Shown: positions 36,585 to 59,558, counted from the stretch's first letter. The stretch: 64,000 nt of DNA from an uncultured Thermoplasmata archaeon (GCA_963715645.1 OY970259.1:815889-879888), one strand, 5' to 3'. A program made the numbers and translations. The notes: generated by a model not told the origin, from the letters alone.

Positions 36585-37306
36585 CGCAGACGGATCCGGC
36601 CACTTCTCGGGGGTCGCCCCCGGTACTTGAGTCTGACGTGGAGGCACGGTTCACCCTCCGACGCCTCCGAAAAGTGGGAGCGAGCCTCCCCGAGTGAGGT
36701 TCGTGGCCGGTTCTCACTCCCCTCCTCCGACCGCGGTAGCGGCGTGGGGTTTCGTCCCGCATCCGGATCGGGGAGATCCCCCCCGCGGAGGAGCTCGCGT
36801 TCCGGTCGAACCTCGCGAGTGCGCTCCGCACGGGGCAGGGTCTCGGCGTCGAGATCGGCCTCGGGGTAGGCTCCGGTCCCGACCCCCGACTCTCCGTGTG
36901 GGCGCTCACCCCGGAGTCGGCCCGTTGGATGACCCGGGTCATTGGCCGGGTGTATGGACCTCACCAGTGGGCCCCGGAACCACCCCCCGAACCCGCCCCC
37001 CAGGAGAAATCCCGCAAGCTGACCGCCCGCCGGCTCTTCGGCTGGCCCGAACCCCTCGGGACCTCGGGTCCCTTGACCGCCGTCCTCGACGCTTCCTCAA
37101 TGGTGCTGAGCGCGGTCCCCCGTGGGGCCACCCTCACCTGGTGGTGGAAGTCGGTCCGACTCGCTCGACCCAAGAGCTGGGAAGCACCGCCTCCGCGTCC
37201 CCCCTTCACCCCGCCACCGAATCGAACACCGTTCCCGAGCCGACTCGCGCAACGCGCCGAGCCGGTGGATGTTCCGACGCAGCGTCCACTGTTCGGGCGC
37301 CTCCAG

Positions 37307-38700
37307 ATGACGCTCGAGTTCGAGAGCGGAAGCCCCGCCTTCCGCCAGGCGACCCGGGTGAAGGATGCGCTCGAAGCGGTGGCGAGTTCCGAACGCGGGA
37401 ACCGAATCCTCTTCCGAAGCTCCCCCGAAGTGTTCGGTCGACCCCTCTGGCCGGACGGGGGGATGTTGGTGTCCGTCGAGGAGTGGGAGCGATTCTGGCC
37501 CCGGCCCTGGTGCCCTGCCCTCGGCGGGCGCAACGAGCCGCGCCTCGACGGGTGGGTGCTTCCGCTAGGGAGAACGGCGACCGGTGCCGTGGTCGGCCCG
37601 TGGGTAGAGGTAGCCCAAGGCCGCCATCTCGCGGTGCTGGGCGAGACCGGGATGGGGAAGAGCTCCCTGCCTAGTCGCGGTCGCCCACCGTGCCTTTCGC
37701 CGGGCGGGTGGGGTCGTCTTCGACCCCCTCGGGGAGACGGTCCGTTCCCTGCGAGACGAGCTTCCCCCGGAGGTTCTACGCCGGGTGGTGTGGATCGCTC
37801 CCGAGCCCGGGGCGGTAGGCGTGAACGCCCTGGAAGGAGTAGGAGCCGGGTCGGAGGAGGACCCGATCCGGTCCGAACGCCGGTTGAACGACCTCGTCCA
37901 CGCCCTCCGACGTGTCCGCTCGGGTCGCTACGAGGACTCCTCCTACTGGGGCCCACGCCTCGAGGAAATGGTGACTCGGGCCGTGCGCGCCGCGGCCGCC
38001 CTTCCCCGCGGTACCCTCGTCGACGCGCACACCCTCCTCGCCACGTCGGCGCGTCTCGGCCGGCCGGTCCCGGCTCGGCCGTCGAGGCGGTTCGGGAGCT
38101 AGCCGACCGGATCCGCGACCGACCGGAGGACGCGGATGGAGCCCGACGGTTACTTCACGAGGTAGTACGCAGTCCGGTCCTGGTCCGAATGCTCTGCGAA
38201 CCCGAGCCCCGACGGAGCACCCGTGACCTAGTCGCGCCCGGACGGGTCGTCCTCATCTCGGGAGACGCGGCCGCGGTCGGCGAGCCTACCTCCCGCTACT
38301 TGCTCTCGGTCTACCTCGCCCTCGTCTGGTCCGAGCTCCTCGCCCGAGGGGGGACTCCGAAGACCTTCGTGGTCCTGGACGAGGCCCAGTGGTTCTCCCA
38401 CGAGAGTCTCGGGGAGATGCTCCGCTTGGGCCGGCGGCGGAACGTCCATGTCATCCTAGCGACCCAGGCGGTCGCTTCCCTCTCCCCGGCCGTCGGCGAG
38501 GCGGTGTGGACTAACGTCTCGGACTTTGTCGCCTTCCGGGGTTCCCCCGAGGAGGCGCGGGAGTTTTCCCGCGCGAGCCGGAGCGTCTCGGCCGAGGAAC
38601 TCCTCGCGTTGCCCCGTGGGAGCGCCGCCGTCCTCCTCGGCAAAGGACACGTCGTGCGGTGGGTCCGCACGACCCGGCGCCCGGCTCATTCCGGGGCTTC
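37307..38700 (+). CDS. HerA/FtsK-like (DUF87/AAA_10-type) P-loop ATPase; several frameshifts
   Basis: Walker A LAVLGETGMGKSSL (~37640), then in another frame VVFDPLGE... Walker B TFVVLDEAQWF (~38369), then RLGRRRNVHVILATQAVASLSPAVGEAVWTNVSDFVAFRG (HerA/FtsK arginine-finger/Q region). Both N-terminal limit and C-terminal extent (possibly to 39065) uncertain. Confidence 0.5.
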
Positions 38701-39146
38701 CCCGGCTGCGGACGCCGCGGGGTCGGCAAGTGCCCCGGACCCGCCCTATGACGGAGAGCCCTCCCCAGGGGGGTGTCCGGACCGGACGCCGACGTGCCGA
38801 CCGAGCTGGTGCGTCGGGCGGCAAGCCTACGGCCGCCGGCGAGCCGCTCGTGGTGAGGCTGGACGACCTGCGACGGGACGTGGACCCAGCGGGCTTCGGC
38901 GTGCGCCGGGCGGGCTCCCTCCTAGGACGTCTCGGCCTCCTTGCCCGCGACGACGGAGACGCCGGGGGCCCGCGATGGACCATCGCCCCCGAGCATCTCC
39001 CCGGACTTCGGAGCGCGGCGTCCCCGGCCTCCGCCGAGGCTTCCCGCGCGCCACAACCCTCTTAGGCTCGGGGTGGCTCTTTCCGGTCGATGGAGGCTCC
39101 GCCGGAGACCGCCCCCCAAACCCCTGTGCCCTCGGGCGGGGGCCTG

Positions 39147-39904
39147 ATGGCCCCGGCCACGGTTCTGGGACGGTGCAGCACCGGGATCGAGGGCCTGGAC
39201 AACATCCTGTACGGGGGGGTCCCGCGCGGCAACATGGTCCTCGTTGCCGGGAGCGTCGGGACCGGAAAGACAACGCTCTGCCTCGAATTCCTGGTCCGGG
39301 GGGCGGAACGCGGCGAGCGCTCCCTGTTCATCTCGGTGACCGAGTCCTCGGACAAGTTGATCCAGAACCTCTCGACCTTCGAGTTCTTCCGGACCGAGCT
39401 TGTCACGAACGGCTCGCTTGTCTTCGTCGACCTGCCCGTCGTCTACGACCGGCTCGGGACTGGAGCACGAGGAGCTCACCCCTGACGAGATCGCGATCCT
39501 GATCCGGACGATCCGCGACCTGGTCCGGAACCTCGGCATCAAGCGCCTGGTCCTCGACAGCTTGACCTCCGTGTGCTACCGCATCCGGCGCGACGAGCGG
39601 ATCCGCGACTTCATGCTCCGTCTAGGCCAGGAACTCAGCGATGCCGGATGCACGTCCCTTCTCGTCTCGGAGATCGGGCCGACGCCCGGTCCGCTACTCG
39701 CTCCATGGAGTGGAGGAGGCGATCGTGGACGGGGTCCTCCTGTTGTGGAACGCTCGACGGCAGGGGGACATCCTTCGGGTCCTCCAGGTCATCAAGATGC
39801 GGGGCACGGCGCACTCCCAGGCCCAGTACGTGGTAGAACTGACGCCGATCGGGATGCTCCTCGCCCCCCACCTGAAGGGCGCGCGGGCCGAGGGCGGGAC
39901 GTAG
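39147..39904 (+). CDS. KaiC/RadA-like RecA-superfamily ATPase with intact Walker A; frameshifted
   Basis: STGIEGLDNILYGGVPRGNMVLVAGSVGTGKTTLCLEFL; later RLVLDSLTSV and DGVLLLWNARRQGDILRVLQVIKMRGTAHS in other frames. Confidence 0.65.
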
Positions 39905-39907
39905 CCC

Positions 39908-40489
39908 GTGCCGATCGACATCGGGGAGCGACTGCGAGGACTGCCGGGCGGCAGCGCCGTGACGCTCAAGCTCGACCCGCGCGAGTATGCGGACCACTAC
40001 TTTGCCGTGCTGAACGCGACCCTGCGCGACGTCGGCAGTGAGACGGACGCCCACACGATCTACGTGGCGGTCACGAACCCGGCCTCCTTCGTCTGGAGCC
40101 TGGCGCAGGCGCTCGACGTCCCCGAGGACCGGATCTCGTTCGTCGACGCGATCAGCCACATCATGATGAATTACGGAAACCCCCTCCCCAACGCCACCTA
40201 CATCGAGAGCCCACGGGCCCTGGAGGCGATCATGCTCCGGGTGGAGTACCTCCTGCGGAAGTTCCCGCACCCCCGCTCGATCGTAGTCATCGACAGCGTG
40301 AACTCCCTCGCGATCCACAACCCGCCCGACCTGCTCTCCGAGTTCTTCCACATCCTCATCAACACCCTCAAGACGCGACAGGTTCTGACCGTGGTCCTCG
40401 AGACATCGGACGAGGAAGCGTCGAGCGTGGAGGCGATGCTCAACCTCGTGGTCGACGAGACCATCGACGTGGCCCGGGCGGGAACCTGA
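39908..40489 (+). CDS. KaiC-like RecA-fold domain protein lacking a P-loop (degenerate)
   Basis: GTG one codon after the upstream TAG, same frame. SIVVIDSVNSLAIH...VLTVVLETSDEEASSVEAMLNLVVDETIDV. No GxxGxGK[ST]. Confidence 0.5.
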   Translation: MPIDIGERLRGLPGGSAVTLKLDPREYADHYFAVLNATLRDVGSETDAHTIYVAVTNPASFVWSLAQALDVPEDRISFVDAISHIMMNYGNPLPNATYIESPRALEAIMLRVEYLLRKFPHPRSIVVIDSVNSLAIHNPPDLLSEFFHILINTLKTRQVLTVVLETSDEEASSVEAMLNLVVDETIDVARAGT

Positions 40490-40491
40490 CG

Positions 40492-41300
40492 ATGATCGAC
40501 GCCGACCGGATCTTCGGCATCCCCGAGATCGACTACCCGATCTCCACGGCCCTCCCCCCCGGATGGCTGGCGGTGTTGACCGGGTCCTCGGCCTCCGGGG
40601 CCCCGCTGCTCGCCAAACAGTTCGCCCACGCCGGGCGTCGGGAGCGTCCCGGTCCTGTTCTACACGACCTACGAGCGGACGATGGACGTCAAGAAGGTGT
40701 TCGACGACTTCGGCTGGGACCCTTCGGCGATCCAGGTCGTCAACCTCGCGGACGAGTACGACGAGCGGGTCCTGGTCCGCGGTCTGGAGGTCGCGACGGC
40801 CCGAGAGAAGGGCCTCTCCCTCAGTCAGTTGACGAACGAGTCTCCGGCCGACCGGTCGGGCTCCGCCTTCAGCCTCACCAGCCGGATGCTGAGCGACCTG
40901 GCGGCGATCGACACCCCGTTCCGGCTCGTCCTCGACTCGGTCGACTTCTTCTTCGAGGTGCTGTCTCCGGCGGACGTCACCACGGTGGCCCGCCAGATCC
41001 GGTATCGGTGCCAGTCGATCGGCGGCCACGCGATGCTCGCGGTCCACTCGCGCGCCCACGACCCGCGGATCATCGGGGCGCTCGAGGACCTGGCCGATGT
41101 CGTGGTCGACCTTCGGGCCCTCCCTCGGGGGCGAGGCTACGAGCACACGATCTACGTCGAGAAGGTGCGGAACCGTCCCGACCTCCAGCGGATTGCCCGA
41201 GCGCGGGTGACCGAACAGGGATGGCAGGTCGACGAGTCGGGCGAGCCCCCCTCGGGTACACCCGCCTACGTCCCCGTAACCGCAACCTTATCGCCCTCGT
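40492..41300 (+). CDS. second degenerate KaiC-like RecA-fold domain protein; frameshifted
   Basis: GWLAVLTGSSASGAPLLAKQFAHAG (P-loop-like, no Lys/Thr); FRLVLDSVDFFFE...HAMLAVHSRAHDP...LADVVVDLR. 3' end approximate. Confidence 0.5.
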
Positions 41301-41328
41301 CCGGCTCGACTCGGTACGAGGGAGCATC

Positions 41329-42113
41329 ATGGAGGACGTCGTCATCCGTCAGCTCGAGAAGGTCGAGCTCCGGACCCGGTCCTGGTCGAGGGATTGCCGG
41401 GCGTGGGGAACGTCGGGAAACTCGCGGCCGACTACCTGCGCGACCAGCTGCCCGCAAAGCCGCTCGCGACGATCTTCTCGAAGTTCTTCCCGCCGCAGGT
41501 CTACGTTAACGAGGAGGGGATCATCCGGCTCGTCTCGAACGAGATCTCGTACTGGAAGTCTCCCGCCCCCGGGGCCCGCGACCTCCTCGTGCTGGGCGGA
41601 GATTACCAGGGGATCTCCCCCGAGGGCCAGTACGAGATCACCGAACGCGTGCTCGAGTTCTGCGCGAAGCTGGGCGTCACGGAGGTCTTCACGCTCGCCG
41701 GGTTCGCGCAAGGCAAGGTCGTAGAGTCGCCGCGCGTCCTCGGGGCCGCGACGAGCCCCGAGCGCGTCGAGGCGATGAAGAAGCACGGGGTCGTCTTCTC
41801 CCGGAACGACCCGGGCGGCGGGCTGATCGGCGCCAGCGGGCTCTTCCTCGGTCTCGGGCGGATGTTCCAGATGGAGGGGGTCTGTCTCATGGGCGAGACG
41901 AGCGGGTACTTCGTCGACCCGCGGAGCGCCGAGGCGGTCCTGAAGGTACTCGTCCACGCCCTCCAGATCGACCTCGACTTCACGGCCCTCGAGTCGAAGG
42001 CCCAGGAGATCGACCGGATCGCACACAAGGTTCAGGAGGCCGAGCAGCGCTCCTCCGAAGGGACGCCGAGCGGGTCGACCGCGTCGCGCGACGACCTCGG
42101 CTACATCGGCTGA
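41329..42113 (+). CDS. PAC2 (proteasome assembly chaperone 2)-family protein; frameshift near 41370
   Basis: MEDVVIRQLEKVEL / PDPVLVEGLPGVGNVGKLAADYL ... VCLMGETSGYFVDPRSAEAVLKVLVHAL. Confidence 0.6.
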
Positions 42114-42135
42114 AGCGTCGCCCGGATCCCGGCCC

Positions 42136-43272
42136 ATGGGAAGCCCGTCGCTCTCCGACGACCCTGCGACGACCCGCGCGCTGCTCGACCTCGTCTCCGC
42201 CCGCGCGGAGCCGGATGGGTTCATCCCGTTCGACCGGTACATGGAGACAGCCCTGTACGCGGAGCCCGGTGGGTACTACGCACGCCGGCGCACCCCGCTC
42301 GGCGCCGGCGGGGATTTCTACACAGCCTCCCATGTCACGCCCCTCTTCTCCGCGGCCTTCGCGGAGCGCCTCCTCGCGATCCGCTCGCGGCTGGGCCGCG
42401 GACGCCCGTTCCATCTCGTCGAGCTGGGACCGGGGGACGGCTCGCTGCTGCAAGGGATCGTGGCCAGCCTCGCCCGGTCCCCTGGGGAGGCCGATGGCCT
42501 CGAGCTGGTGCTCGTCGAGCGGTCCTCGTCCCTGCGTGCGCTCTCGCTCGAACGAGTCCGGGCCGCGGCCGAACCCCTCGGGATCCGGGTAAGTGCGCCG
42601 GAGTCACTCTCCTCCCTCGGACCGTTCGAGGGGGTCGTGGTCGCCAACGAGTTCCTGGACGCCCAGCCCGTACGGCGCCTCCGACGGCACGGCGACGGTT
42701 GGCTCGAGCTGGGAATCCGCCTCCGAGGCGGGAGGGCGGAGCCGGCGGAGGCTCCGCTCGCCGCTGCGGTTCCCGGGCCGCCGCTCCCGTCCCCCGTTCC
42801 CGACGGCACCGTCGTCGAGGTGGCTCCGCGAGCCGAGGCACTGGTCCGAGAGGTGGCGGACCACCTCGTCCACGGGGCTCTGCTCGTCGACGACTACGGC
42901 ATGGAGGAGCGCGAGCTGGTCGCGGGCCATCCGCGCGGCACCCTCGACGGGGTGCGGAACCACCGCGCCGGATGGGATCCCCTCCAGGAACCCGGGTCGG
43001 CCGACCTCTCGGCCTTCGTCAACTTCACCCGGGTGCGCTCGGTCGCGGCCGCCGCGGGCCTCGCCCTCCTGTCGGACCGGTCCCAATCGGAGACGCTGGG
43101 GGAGTGGGGGTTCGTCCGTCTCTTCGACGCCGCCCTCCGGGCCGCGTCCGCTGGAGAGGCCGAGGTGCGGCTACGGCTGGCGGTGAAGAATCTGCTGTTC
43201 GGGTTCGACCGATTCCGGATCCTGGAGTTCGTACCGGCCCGCGACCGGGACCTGTGGTCCGCGCCTACGTGA
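42136..43272 (+). CDS. MidA/NDUFAF7-family SAM-dependent methyltransferase (DUF185)
   Basis: FIPFDRYMETALYAEPGGYYARRR...GDFYTASHV..LF...HLVELGPGDGSL...VVANEFLDAQPV. Confidence 0.65.
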   Translation: MGSPSLSDDPATTRALLDLVSARAEPDGFIPFDRYMETALYAEPGGYYARRRTPLGAGGDFYTASHVTPLFSAAFAERLLAIRSRLGRGRPFHLVELGPGDGSLLQGIVASLARSPGEADGLELVLVERSSSLRALSLERVRAAAEPLGIRVSAPESLSSLGPFEGVVVANEFLDAQPVRRLRRHGDGWLELGIRLRGGRAEPAEAPLAAAVPGPPLPSPVPDGTVVEVAPRAEALVREVADHLVHGALLVDDYGMEERELVAGHPRGTLDGVRNHRAGWDPLQEPGSADLSAFVNFTRVRSVAAAAGLALLSDRSQSETLGEWGFVRLFDAALRAASAGEAEVRLRLAVKNLLFGFDRFRILEFVPARDRDLWSAPT

Positions 43273-43936
43273 CCGGTGGGGCATTCGACCCCGGTGCGAT
43301 CGGTTCCGCGACCTTGGCGGCCACCAGGAGCCGCGCCTTGTCCTCCGGGAGAGAGAGGATGTCCTCCGTCCGCAGGTCGATGGTCTCGGCCCCGACCTCG
43401 ATCGGCCGTCCGTCCTTGACCACTCGAACGTAGGCGGTCGGGGGCACGACCGGCGCCCTCGACGGGGATGGGGCCGCCGCCGAGGTCGGGGCGGAGGCGG
43501 GCGCGGGGATGGGTGCCCCAGCGGGAGGGCTGGCGGGGGCCGACGTCGCCGGGGGGGCCTCCAGAAAGGGGGTGATCCGGCGCCGAGAATCGAGCAGGGT
43601 CGCGACAATGCGGTCGTAGATGGCGCGTTCGTCCGGGAGCGCGTTCGGGAGCTCCCGGCTCCCTCCGATGCTGGCCTGGAACGCGGCCGCGAGGACCTTC
43701 TGCGTGCGCCCCTCCACGATGTCCCGCGCGACCTGGCTCGCCCGCTGGTACGTCTGTCGTGCCATGTCCCCCTTGCGGCCCGACGGATTCTCCCGCAGGT
43801 CCGATTCGTAGGAGCGGCGCACGTCGGCGAGGTAGCCCACGGTGACCGAGTAGAAGTCGTGGGGGAGCTTGGCCAGACCTCGGGTCGCTGCCTCACTCCG
43901 TCTCCATTCGAGCAAGAGCGAGAAGTGGTCGGGCAC
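43265..43936 (-). CDS. GINS family DNA replication complex subunit (Gins51/15-like)
   Basis: N-terminal LLLEWRRSEA...LAKLPHDFYSVTVGYLADV fits the archaeal GINS pattern. Divergent from the Toprim gene. Confidence 0.5.
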   Translation of the reverse strand: MPDHFSLLLEWRRSEAATRGLAKLPHDFYSVTVGYLADVRRSYESDLRENPSGRKGDMARQTYQRASQVARDIVEGRTQKVLAAAFQASIGGSRELPNALPDERAIYDRIVATLLDSRRRITPFLEAPPATSAPASPPAGAPIPAPASAPTSAAAPSPSRAPVVPPTAYVRVVKDGRPIEVGAETIDLRTEDILSLPEDKARLLVAAKVAEPIAPGSNAPPVT

Positions 43937-59299: not shown

Positions 59300-59558
59300 T
59301 CCCGCTTGGACGGTGACCATCTCCGTCCGCACACCCACTGCGGAACTCGCGGGCTGGCTCGAACAGGCGCTCCTCCCTGAGGCGTCGCGCGAGGTGCCTA
59401 GGGCCCATGCCGAGGTCCATCGCCCGGCTCCGACCCGGGTCGAGATCAGGATCCGCGCGCGGGACACCGGCTCTGTCCGGGCGGCCCTGAACACCTATCT
59501 AGGCTGGGTCCACCTCGCCCTGGCCGCCGTACCTCGCGCCCGGCCAGGGTCGACGTAG
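59300..59558 (+). CDS. pcc1: KEOPS complex subunit Pcc1-like segment (in-frame with purB as assembled)
   Basis: WTVTISVRTPTAELAGWLEQALLPEASREVPRAHAEVHRPAPTRVEIRIRARDTGSVRAALNTYLGWVHLALAAV matches the Pcc1 beta-alpha pattern (ALxPE...LRAxLNsYLrW). Confidence 0.45.

Follow-up and report, generated by a model that had tools for sequence, protein, structure and literature searches.

A phylum-wide operon of one active and two disabled KaiC-like paralogs in Thermoplasmatota, a candidate regulator of pili or the cell surface

Do tightly spaced, co-directional genes that stay together in related genomes encode one system, or several things that were inherited side by side? We address this question for a 64,000-nucleotide stretch of DNA from an uncultured Thermoplasmata archaeon (GCA_963715645.1 OY970259.1:815889-879888; ~69% G+C), the whole of which we call the window, and specifically for six co-directional, tightly spaced plus-strand genes at window 36694-43272. 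These genes encode a big ATPase, three KaiC-like proteins (KaiC-A, KaiC-B, and KaiC-C), a PAC2-family protein, and the methyltransferase MidA, and they are surrounded by the genes for fibrillarin, Nop56/58, a DRG GTPase, and ribosomal protein L15e. An initial annotation had proposed that all six form a single undescribed system. Instead, we find that the six genes are three separate things, a phylum-wide triad of KaiC-like genes, a clade-specific ATPase neighbor, and two housekeeping genes, because distant triads lack the other three genes, a sister clade carries a gene inserted between the big ATPase and KaiC-A, and distant homologs of the big ATPase have no KaiC neighbors. On balance, we favor the view that the triad encodes a translationally coupled hetero-oligomeric KaiC-like complex that probably regulates a pilus or another cell-surface structure.

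The evidence for the triad as a unit comes from a profile of distant KaiC-B family members that was run against a single genome from each GTDB species. KaiC-B relatives are found in at least 587 GTDB species, from which 80 distant loci were returned; our counts for distant loci refer to these. All 80 belong to Thermoplasmatota, including Methanomassiliicoccales and DHVE2/Aciduliprofundum. KaiC-A precedes KaiC-B on the same strand in every one of them and KaiC-C follows in 55, with A-B and B-C spacers of -8 to +12 nucleotides in nearly every locus, such that the reading frames overlap or nearly abut. The other three genes do not travel with the triad: the big ATPase (tblastn and a family hidden Markov model) and both PAC2 and MidA (tblastn) are absent within 8 kb of it in 80/80 distant loci. 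Within the window's clade, KaiC-B is 86-95% and KaiC-A 79-93% identical, which is comparable to DRG and L15e; the corresponding values are 45-61% for the big ATPase and 53-61% for MidA. The triad is under strong purifying selection. By sequence comparison, the conserved unit is KaiC-A, KaiC-B, and KaiC-C only (window 39090-41279), in fixed order and phylum-wide.

The genes of the cluster are not all legible in the window as assembled. Between 36.7 and 43.3 kb the coding frame of the plus strand jumps repeatedly, as seen in a plot of G+C content by codon position and in three-frame translations. These frameshifts are assembly errors and the genes are intact in the organism, because in a near-identical short-read contig (L003, run SRR25213560; 99.8% identity over window 29900-50493) each of the six has an unbroken reading frame, with products of 789, 270, 193, 261, 261, and 378 amino acids. 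The comparison gives 21 gap openings in 20.6 kb, every one a single G or C, or about one single-base G/C indel per kb. Within the cluster, the indels lie at window 36770, 37670, 38069, 38789, 38830, 38833, 39455, 39691, 40633, 41254, 41307, and 41374, and further ones lie outside it, for example in Nop56 (34072) and in the DRG GTPase gene (36622). Pseudogenes and programmed frameshifts were considered and ruled out, given the intact genes of L003 and differences that are single G/C indels across the whole 20 kb. Because this indel rate holds throughout the compared stretch, many genes elsewhere in the window, beyond the six-gene cluster, will also appear frameshifted.

With the frames restored by comparison to L003, much of the initial annotation's description of the cluster holds. 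The six genes are indeed co-directional and minimally spaced (intergenic spacers of 24, 3, 2, 48, and 22 nucleotides in L003), and the gene identities that it assigned agree with matches in Pfam and NCBIfam. Its start for the first gene, 36896, has to be moved to ~36694, with the end at 39065; the end of KaiC-C and the start of PAC2 likewise need correction, to 41279 and 41329. Both junctions within the triad are as it had described: the TAG stop of KaiC-A is followed by one codon and then, in the same frame, by the GTG start of KaiC-B, and the TGA stop of KaiC-B is followed by CG and the ATG start of KaiC-C. Given the shared frame at the first of these junctions (window 39902-39910), a feature of the window's clade, read-through would yield an A-B fusion; the arrangement is probably incidental because the spacing differs in other lineages.

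KaiC-A (window 39090-39904, plus strand; 270 amino acids after correction of the indels at 39455 and 39691) is a single-domain KaiC-like ATPase that matches Pfam KaiC (PF06745) with 182 bits against a gathering threshold of 26.6 (1.5e-53). Its motifs are intact (GSVGTGKTT, TE, LVLDS, and KMRGTxHS), and the Walker A GS[VC]GTGKT[ST], the TE, the Walker B Asp, and KMRGTxHS are invariant in 81/81 orthologs that cover them. KaiC-A is the only member of the triad that combines the features of an active KaiC-like enzyme, namely a Walker A GxxxxGK[ST], a catalytic Glu, a Walker B Asp, and a K-x-R finger. Its best sequence matches in the PDB are KaiC CI/CII, PH0186, and PH0284 (2.8e-32 for the last); it also matches SSO2452 (2w0m, 8.7e-20), more weakly RadA, RadB, and RAD51 paralogs, and has a weak Pfam match to PAXNEB/Elp4 (8.7e-4). 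KaiC-A is not a circadian KaiC, which has two domains (CI and CII) in ~500 amino acids: it has one PF06745 domain, KaiC chains give two alignments to it, one for each of their domains, and the precomputed Pfam annotation of L003 and its relatives contains no KaiB- or KaiA-family gene. Nor does it belong to the named archaeal relatives as delimited by NCBIfam. The ArlH model gives 37.3 bits for KaiC-A and 19 for KaiC-C against a cut-off of 215, and the RadB and RadA models give 32 bits against 172 and 25 against 259, respectively.

The two genes that follow encode paralogs that have been disabled in different ways. KaiC-B (window 39908-40489, plus strand; 193 amino acids, intact in the window) matches PF06745 at 26.6 bits, exactly the gathering threshold (4.6e-6), and lacks both the P-loop and the C-terminal K-x-R hairpin of an active enzyme. 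In a search of a representative protein library, KaiC-B defines a family of ~190-amino-acid proteins with sharp motifs (FVDxIS, Y[VI]ESP(T/R)(M/A)LE, DSxNxLxIHN, and LSEF(L/F)HI), and among more than 120 protein clusters its identity is 80-97%. An AlphaFold2 (AF2) model of KaiC-B (pLDDT 89) finds its best fold match in PH0284 (TM 0.70-0.75) and also matches Elp456 chains (E 2.8e-6) and RadA/Sms. KaiC-B thus models as a pseudo-ATPase with a stripped KaiC/RecA-fold core. A P-loop-less KaiC-like domain of the same type is also present at the C-terminus of three very large multidomain proteins (P0278, P0294, and P0295; 920-1776 amino acids, with TPR/SNAP repeats and CARDB/Ig-like domains), which suggests that the domain can serve elsewhere as an output module or an adaptor.

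KaiC-C (window 40492-41279, plus strand; 261 amino acids after correction of the indels at 40633 and 41254) lies above the PF06745 gathering threshold, with 38.9 bits (7.9e-10). Its P-loop scaffold persists with the Walker Lys-Thr replaced, reading GSSASGAPL in the window, and this replacement is seen in 56/56 orthologs that cover the motif; KaiC-C therefore also falls short of an active enzyme. In most lineages the loop has the form G.PG.G.E[LF]FAKQFA, and in the window's clade GAP. KaiC-C retains a Walker-B-like DSxDFF, a TTxER, and a K-x-R-N-x-P in which the K is kept in 98% and the R in 91% of sequences. This last motif corresponds to the trans-acting Lys/Arg of KaiC-type rings. Both KaiC-B and KaiC-C have weak DUF7504 matches and stand at the edge of PF06745, DUF7504, and DUF7090. 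The initial annotation had read the three genes as one catalytic KaiC and two degenerate partners, and this division proves to be ancient and strictly conserved (81 KaiC-A orthologs, 56 KaiC-C orthologs, and the KaiC-B model).

What does the triad do? The same annotation had overlooked a conserved partner, the type IV pilin genes. The commonest cluster of flanking open reading frames at the distant loci encodes proteins of ~150-170 amino acids that begin ...AVSPVIATILMVAITVVLAAVLY, carry a class III signal peptide, and match Pfam Pilin_N (7e-12 to 1.5e-8). For instance, on a complete chromosome from a metagenome-assembled genome (MAG), the precomputed annotation lists KaiC-B, KaiC-C, and then three Pilin_N genes (L086). 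By motif scan, pilin genes directly follow KaiC-C in 27 loci and directly follow KaiC-B in 22 loci that lack KaiC-C; altogether, type IV pilin genes lie directly 3' of the module in ~49/72 distant loci with enough downstream DNA. There is precedent for such a link. ArlH docks on the motor ATPase ArlI. A citation for this docking is given in PMC12448462, and the KaiC-like CirA of Haloferax volcanii acts in the regulation of pilin-dependent motility (PMC10983859). KaiC-family arCOGs, including inactivated relatives, have been reported with archaeal type IV pilus loci (PMC4858521), and for this reason the phrase "undescribed system" was too strong: KaiC-like ATPases, their inactivated relatives, and an association with pilus loci are already known in outline.

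Based on these data, we propose that KaiC-A, KaiC-B, and KaiC-C would be made in a fixed ratio and would form a single hetero-oligomer, which is probably a ring like those of KaiC, PH0284, or Elp456. Coupled frames, complementary loss of motifs, and similarity of fold give indirect support to physical assembly of the three. ATP would be hydrolyzed at the KaiC-A sites only, KaiC-C may supply a trans-acting Lys/Arg finger that completes those sites, and KaiC-B would be a structural scaffold or a partner-binding adaptor subunit. Because pilin genes directly follow the module in most lineages, its likeliest job would be the nucleotide-dependent regulation of a type IV pilus or a related surface structure, in a manner that may be comparable to that of ArlH on ArlI or of CirA in the control of pilin-dependent motility. 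In the window's clade, the pilin genes are gone and the module lies in a housekeeping block behind a clade-specific ATPase of the VirB4/TrwB/HerA class, which may or may not be its new partner. A more elaborate version of this proposal is unlikely in our estimation: an Elp456-like hetero-hexameric KaiC ring in which one of the three subunits hydrolyzes ATP, KaiC-C lends its finger to KaiC-A, and KaiC-B is a pure adaptor would serve throughout the phylum as a switch for the deployment of type IV pilins or for the cell surface, and would in this clade have been re-coupled to a soluble, hitherto uncharacterized VirB4-like motor with a DNA-binding-like tail.

Several observations weigh against a pilus-regulating complex of three parts. 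In 25 of the distant loci there is no KaiC-C, and a complex with all three parts is therefore not universal. The DHVE2/Aciduliprofundum loci and ~20 others have the triad and no adjacent pilins. In the window's own clade, a motif scan that covered the window and 12 related loci found no pilin, either at a distance of up to 10 kb or in the full 64 kb of the window. A motif scan for T2SSE-type Walker A sequences detected no pilus assembly ATPase near any triad, and there is no platform gene among the commonest flanking gene clusters of the distant loci; since neither is seen nearby, it is gene neighborhood alone that ties the triad to pilins. In Cuniculiplasma, pilin genes are located ~500 kb away from those of the pilus machinery (PMC12448462). 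Finally, the locus counts exceed the number of independent events and overstate independence, because many of the MAG species are phylogenetically related.

The big ATPase (window 36694-39065, plus strand; 789 amino acids, indel-corrected) is a soluble protein of the VirB4/TrwB/HerA class. It has weak Pfam matches only (DUF87, AAA_16, AAA_22, and TraG-D_C) and is built from an N-terminal alpha/beta domain (approximately residues 1-265), an ATPase core (~290-660) that contains the Walker A sequence GETGMGKSS, the Walker B sequence VVLDEAQW, and, at ~390-500, a helical insert, and a disordered linker followed by a C-terminal winged-helix-like domain (~698-775). A separate gene for 105 amino acids at window 38748-39065 was ruled out, since this segment is the C-terminal domain of the big ATPase. 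The fold is VirB4-like, with TrwB, HerA, FtsK, and DptH as neighbors, and structural alignment gives 9-18% identity to VirB4, TrwB, HerA, and DptH chains. Curated families exclude it by a wide margin (15.7 bits against an NCBIfam cut-off of 1020 for TrbE, and 14.3 against 800 for HerA_Thermprot). We found no hydrophobic or membrane segment in the protein, and no type IV secretion channel, pilin, or coupling genes within 10 kb of its gene. It is also not part of a HerA-NurA module, as there is no nurA, mre11, or rad50 in the annotated loci of the clade. The initial annotation had set the cluster apart from both the archaellum FlaH/FlaI pair and NurA-HerA-Mre11-Rad50, and the ArlH and HerA scores far below cut-off, together with the absence of the partner genes, agree with this.

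Distant homologs of the big ATPase (22-28% identity) occur on archaeal contigs of 33-49% G+C, where they stand alone with no KaiC neighbors. One of them, of 870 amino acids (L094, 8272-10884), lies beside genes of lipid and pyrimidine biosynthesis (GGGP synthase, UbiA, PyrD, and PyrK) and is convergent with a Hef helicase gene. In another (L096, 4180-5406), the N-terminal domain is perhaps encoded by a separate upstream gene at 2084-2893, as judged from translation alone. Closer to the window, a sister clade (L087; KaiC-B 66% identical) has a 3.3-kb gene between the big ATPase and KaiC-A. The product of this gene (L087, 4852-8163) is a 1103-amino-acid right-handed beta-helix of NosD-like type with numerous N-glycosylation sequons and a membrane anchor at its C-terminus, and it looks like a surface protein or glycoprotein.

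The fifth and sixth genes have ready assignments. The PAC2 gene (window 41329-42113, plus strand; 261 amino acids, indel at 41374) scores 266.3 bits against a cut-off of 200 for TIGR00162 and 179 against 25.8 for PF09754 (1.4e-52); by these matches, it encodes a homolog of the PAC2-family proteasome assembly chaperones and is a housekeeping neighbor. MidA (window 42136-43272, plus strand; 378 amino acids, intact) scores 151.4 bits against 23.3 for Methyltransf_28 (PF02636; 4e-44) and is accordingly classed, by homology, as an S-adenosylmethionine-dependent methyltransferase of the MidA/NDUFAF7 type and an unrelated neighbor. Could these two, the triad, and the big ATPase nevertheless work together as a dedicated system for a DNA or RNA transaction, a stress response, or defense? 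Such a system would account for the co-direction and the short spacers, and for the persistence of the six-gene arrangement in all clade members examined (L001-L005 and L090-L092). In these same genomes, however, the block from Nop56 to L15e is collinear as a whole, with flanks that are conserved equally well (Nop56, fibrillarin, and DRG on one side; GINS-like, Toprim, and L15e genes on the other). Because the entire block is kept, the adjacency of the six genes in the clade is inherited synteny and is no independent evidence on function. Outside the clade the neighborhood is not conserved and only the triad is kept, as the 80 distant loci without big ATPase, PAC2, or MidA attest. Further evidence against a six-gene system, which we consider very unlikely, comes from the sister clade, where a surface-protein gene separates KaiC-A from the big ATPase, from the distant big-ATPase homologs without KaiC neighbors, and from the PAC2 protein, whose score exceeds the curated cut-off for a family of housekeeping proteasome chaperones.

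Three narrower alternatives concern the triad and the big ATPase. The two could form a module for DNA repair or recombination, in which mediators resembling RadA paralogs (compare aRadC/SSO2452 of Sulfolobus and the Rad51 paralog complexes) cooperate with a DNA translocase. The resemblance of KaiC-A to SSO2452 and, more weakly, to RadA, RadB, and the RAD51 paralogs fits this idea, as do the RadA/Sms match of the KaiC-B model, the DNA-handling motors TrwB, HerA, FtsK, and DptH among the fold neighbors of the big ATPase, its FtsK-gamma-like layout of motor, linker, and small helical domain, and the Hef helicase beside one distant homolog. We nonetheless give a repair module only a small chance, because the commonest conserved neighbor of the triad is a pilin gene and not a repair gene, no NurA, Mre11, or Rad50 gene is nearby, the NCBIfam scores for RadA, RadB, and HerA are far under their cut-offs, and the adjacency of ATPase and triad is limited to one clade. 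In another reading, the triad has been re-wired in this clade to the VirB4-like ATPase, with the KaiC-like ring docking on a hexameric motor in place of its pilin-linked role. The two lie on the same strand with a 24-nucleotide spacer, the big ATPase is present exactly where pilins are absent, ArlH and ArlI provide a precedent, and the gene inserted in L087, a likely surface glycoprotein, would retain the cell-surface theme. The re-wiring would nevertheless be a single evolutionary instance, the L087 insertion shows that adjacency is not required, the big ATPase has no membrane component, and it evolves much faster than KaiC-A and KaiC-B (45-61% versus 79-95% identity), which is unusual in an obligate partner; we regard this reading as doubtful.

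An anti-virus defense island, HerA-based or MADS-like, is extremely improbable. The PADLOC mad8 profile matches the core of the big ATPase (1.7e-20), and there are weak matches to HerA defense models, but the mad profiles are generic for ATPases because they were built from HHpred PDB hits, and KaiC-A matches the same mad8 model. The cluster is not a MADS system, as there are no other mad components and MidA comes from a different methyltransferase family than the N6-methyltransferase. The score with the anti-phage HerA model of NCBIfam is 20 bits, where the cut-off is 800, and relatives of the big ATPase are absent from the viral contigs of IMG/VR. The genes sit in a stable housekeeping block. 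KaiC-A and KaiC-B show roughly the conservation of L15e and the triad is phylum-wide, the opposite of patchy, fast-evolving defense genes.

A number of other features of the window were noted. A mobile element was considered as an origin for the cluster and rejected: the big ATPase has no relatives in IMG/VR, the cluster has no tRNA nearby, and the composition does not shift. Between the start of the DRG GTPase gene and the big ATPase gene (window ~36720-36745; L003 6715-6745) is a G+C-rich hairpin, for example GGGGGTCGCCCCC, followed by CTACTTGAG-N3-TGAC. This element is kept in most of 10 related loci, lies ~40 nucleotides upstream of the divergent DRG gene, and is a possible promoter or shared regulatory element. 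Convergent with MidA on the minus strand (window 43265-43936) is a gene for 223 amino acids that has no Pfam match on record in related loci and that resembles, by eye, an archaeal GINS-type replication protein; a small gene with a Toprim domain comes after it, and the pair is kept throughout the clade. At window ~270-500, a plus-strand reading frame ending ...FFLEGIEYLVRLHGIDRMVELLAAFHRQAVAHEARVWVCVHPNLMAPADVERLVGAFAH* fits the remark in the initial annotation on a DUF835-like (inactivated KaiC-like) gene. The entire window has no Rfam match at the gathering threshold. Its sole tRNA, tRNA-Arg(CCG) at 59399-59490 on the plus strand, probably contains an intron because of its length of 92 nucleotides.

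KaiC-like proteins are numerous in archaea and for the most part of obscure function; inactivated copies have been noted, but seldom together with their partners. The triad is a clean case, with an operon in at least 587 species that joins one active to two differently disabled paralogs, and it offers a concrete, testable model of a pseudo-ATPase that serves an active sibling. The pili and cell surfaces of Thermoplasmatota are poorly understood, and the triad is a candidate for their regulator; the phylum includes the Thermoplasmatales, which lack a wall, the methanogenic Methanomassiliicoccales, and numerous uncultured lineages known from environmental metagenomes. A more general lesson is that tight co-directional spacing within a syntenic housekeeping block does not prove a shared system.

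Comparison with known systems separates the ordinary parts of this locus from the distinctive one. The fifth and sixth genes pass curated thresholds as PbaA/PbaB-type PAC2 chaperones and MidA/NDUFAF7 and show nothing unusual. The big ATPase belongs with the VirB4/TrwB (VirD4)/HerA/DptH clade of the FtsK-HerA superfamily and differs from it in its own N-terminal domain and C-terminal winged-helix-like domain; unlike the systems of that clade, it has no membrane segment and lies in a housekeeping setting, with no type IV secretion, conjugation, NurA, or Dnd genes nearby. Elp456 of Elongator and the Rad51-paralog complexes are, as the triad is proposed to be, hetero-oligomers of RecA-fold paralogs in which some or all subunits lack ATPase motifs. 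The likeness is one of fold only, with no membership in a sequence family and no Elp3 or tRNA link in the neighborhood, and it concerns the possible build of the complex, not its job. For the job, the closer parallels are ArlH (FlaH) and CirA, KaiC-like proteins that control a type IV filament machine. These are single proteins, whereas the triad is a set of three paralogs, and ArlH is encoded in the arl operon with arlI and arlJ, whereas the triad loci have no arlI, arlJ, or pilus assembly ATPase nearby. In the literature searched, the 2017 mBio survey of KaiC-like hubs aside, we found no description of a triad of one active and two disabled paralogs with pilin genes in Thermoplasmatota; it may stand in that survey under arCOG numbers. 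Taken singly, the subunits have familiar relatives. KaiC-A is a typical member of the archaeal single-domain KaiC-like ATPases (PH0284/PH0186 type, PF06745), and KaiC-B and KaiC-C stand near the known inactivated KaiC relatives (Pfam DUF7090, DUF7504, DUF7125, and DUF835). What distinguishes the triad from other known KaiC-like proteins is that a whole phylum retains, in a single translationally coupled operon, three distinct paralogs, of which one is active and the other two are disabled in different ways.

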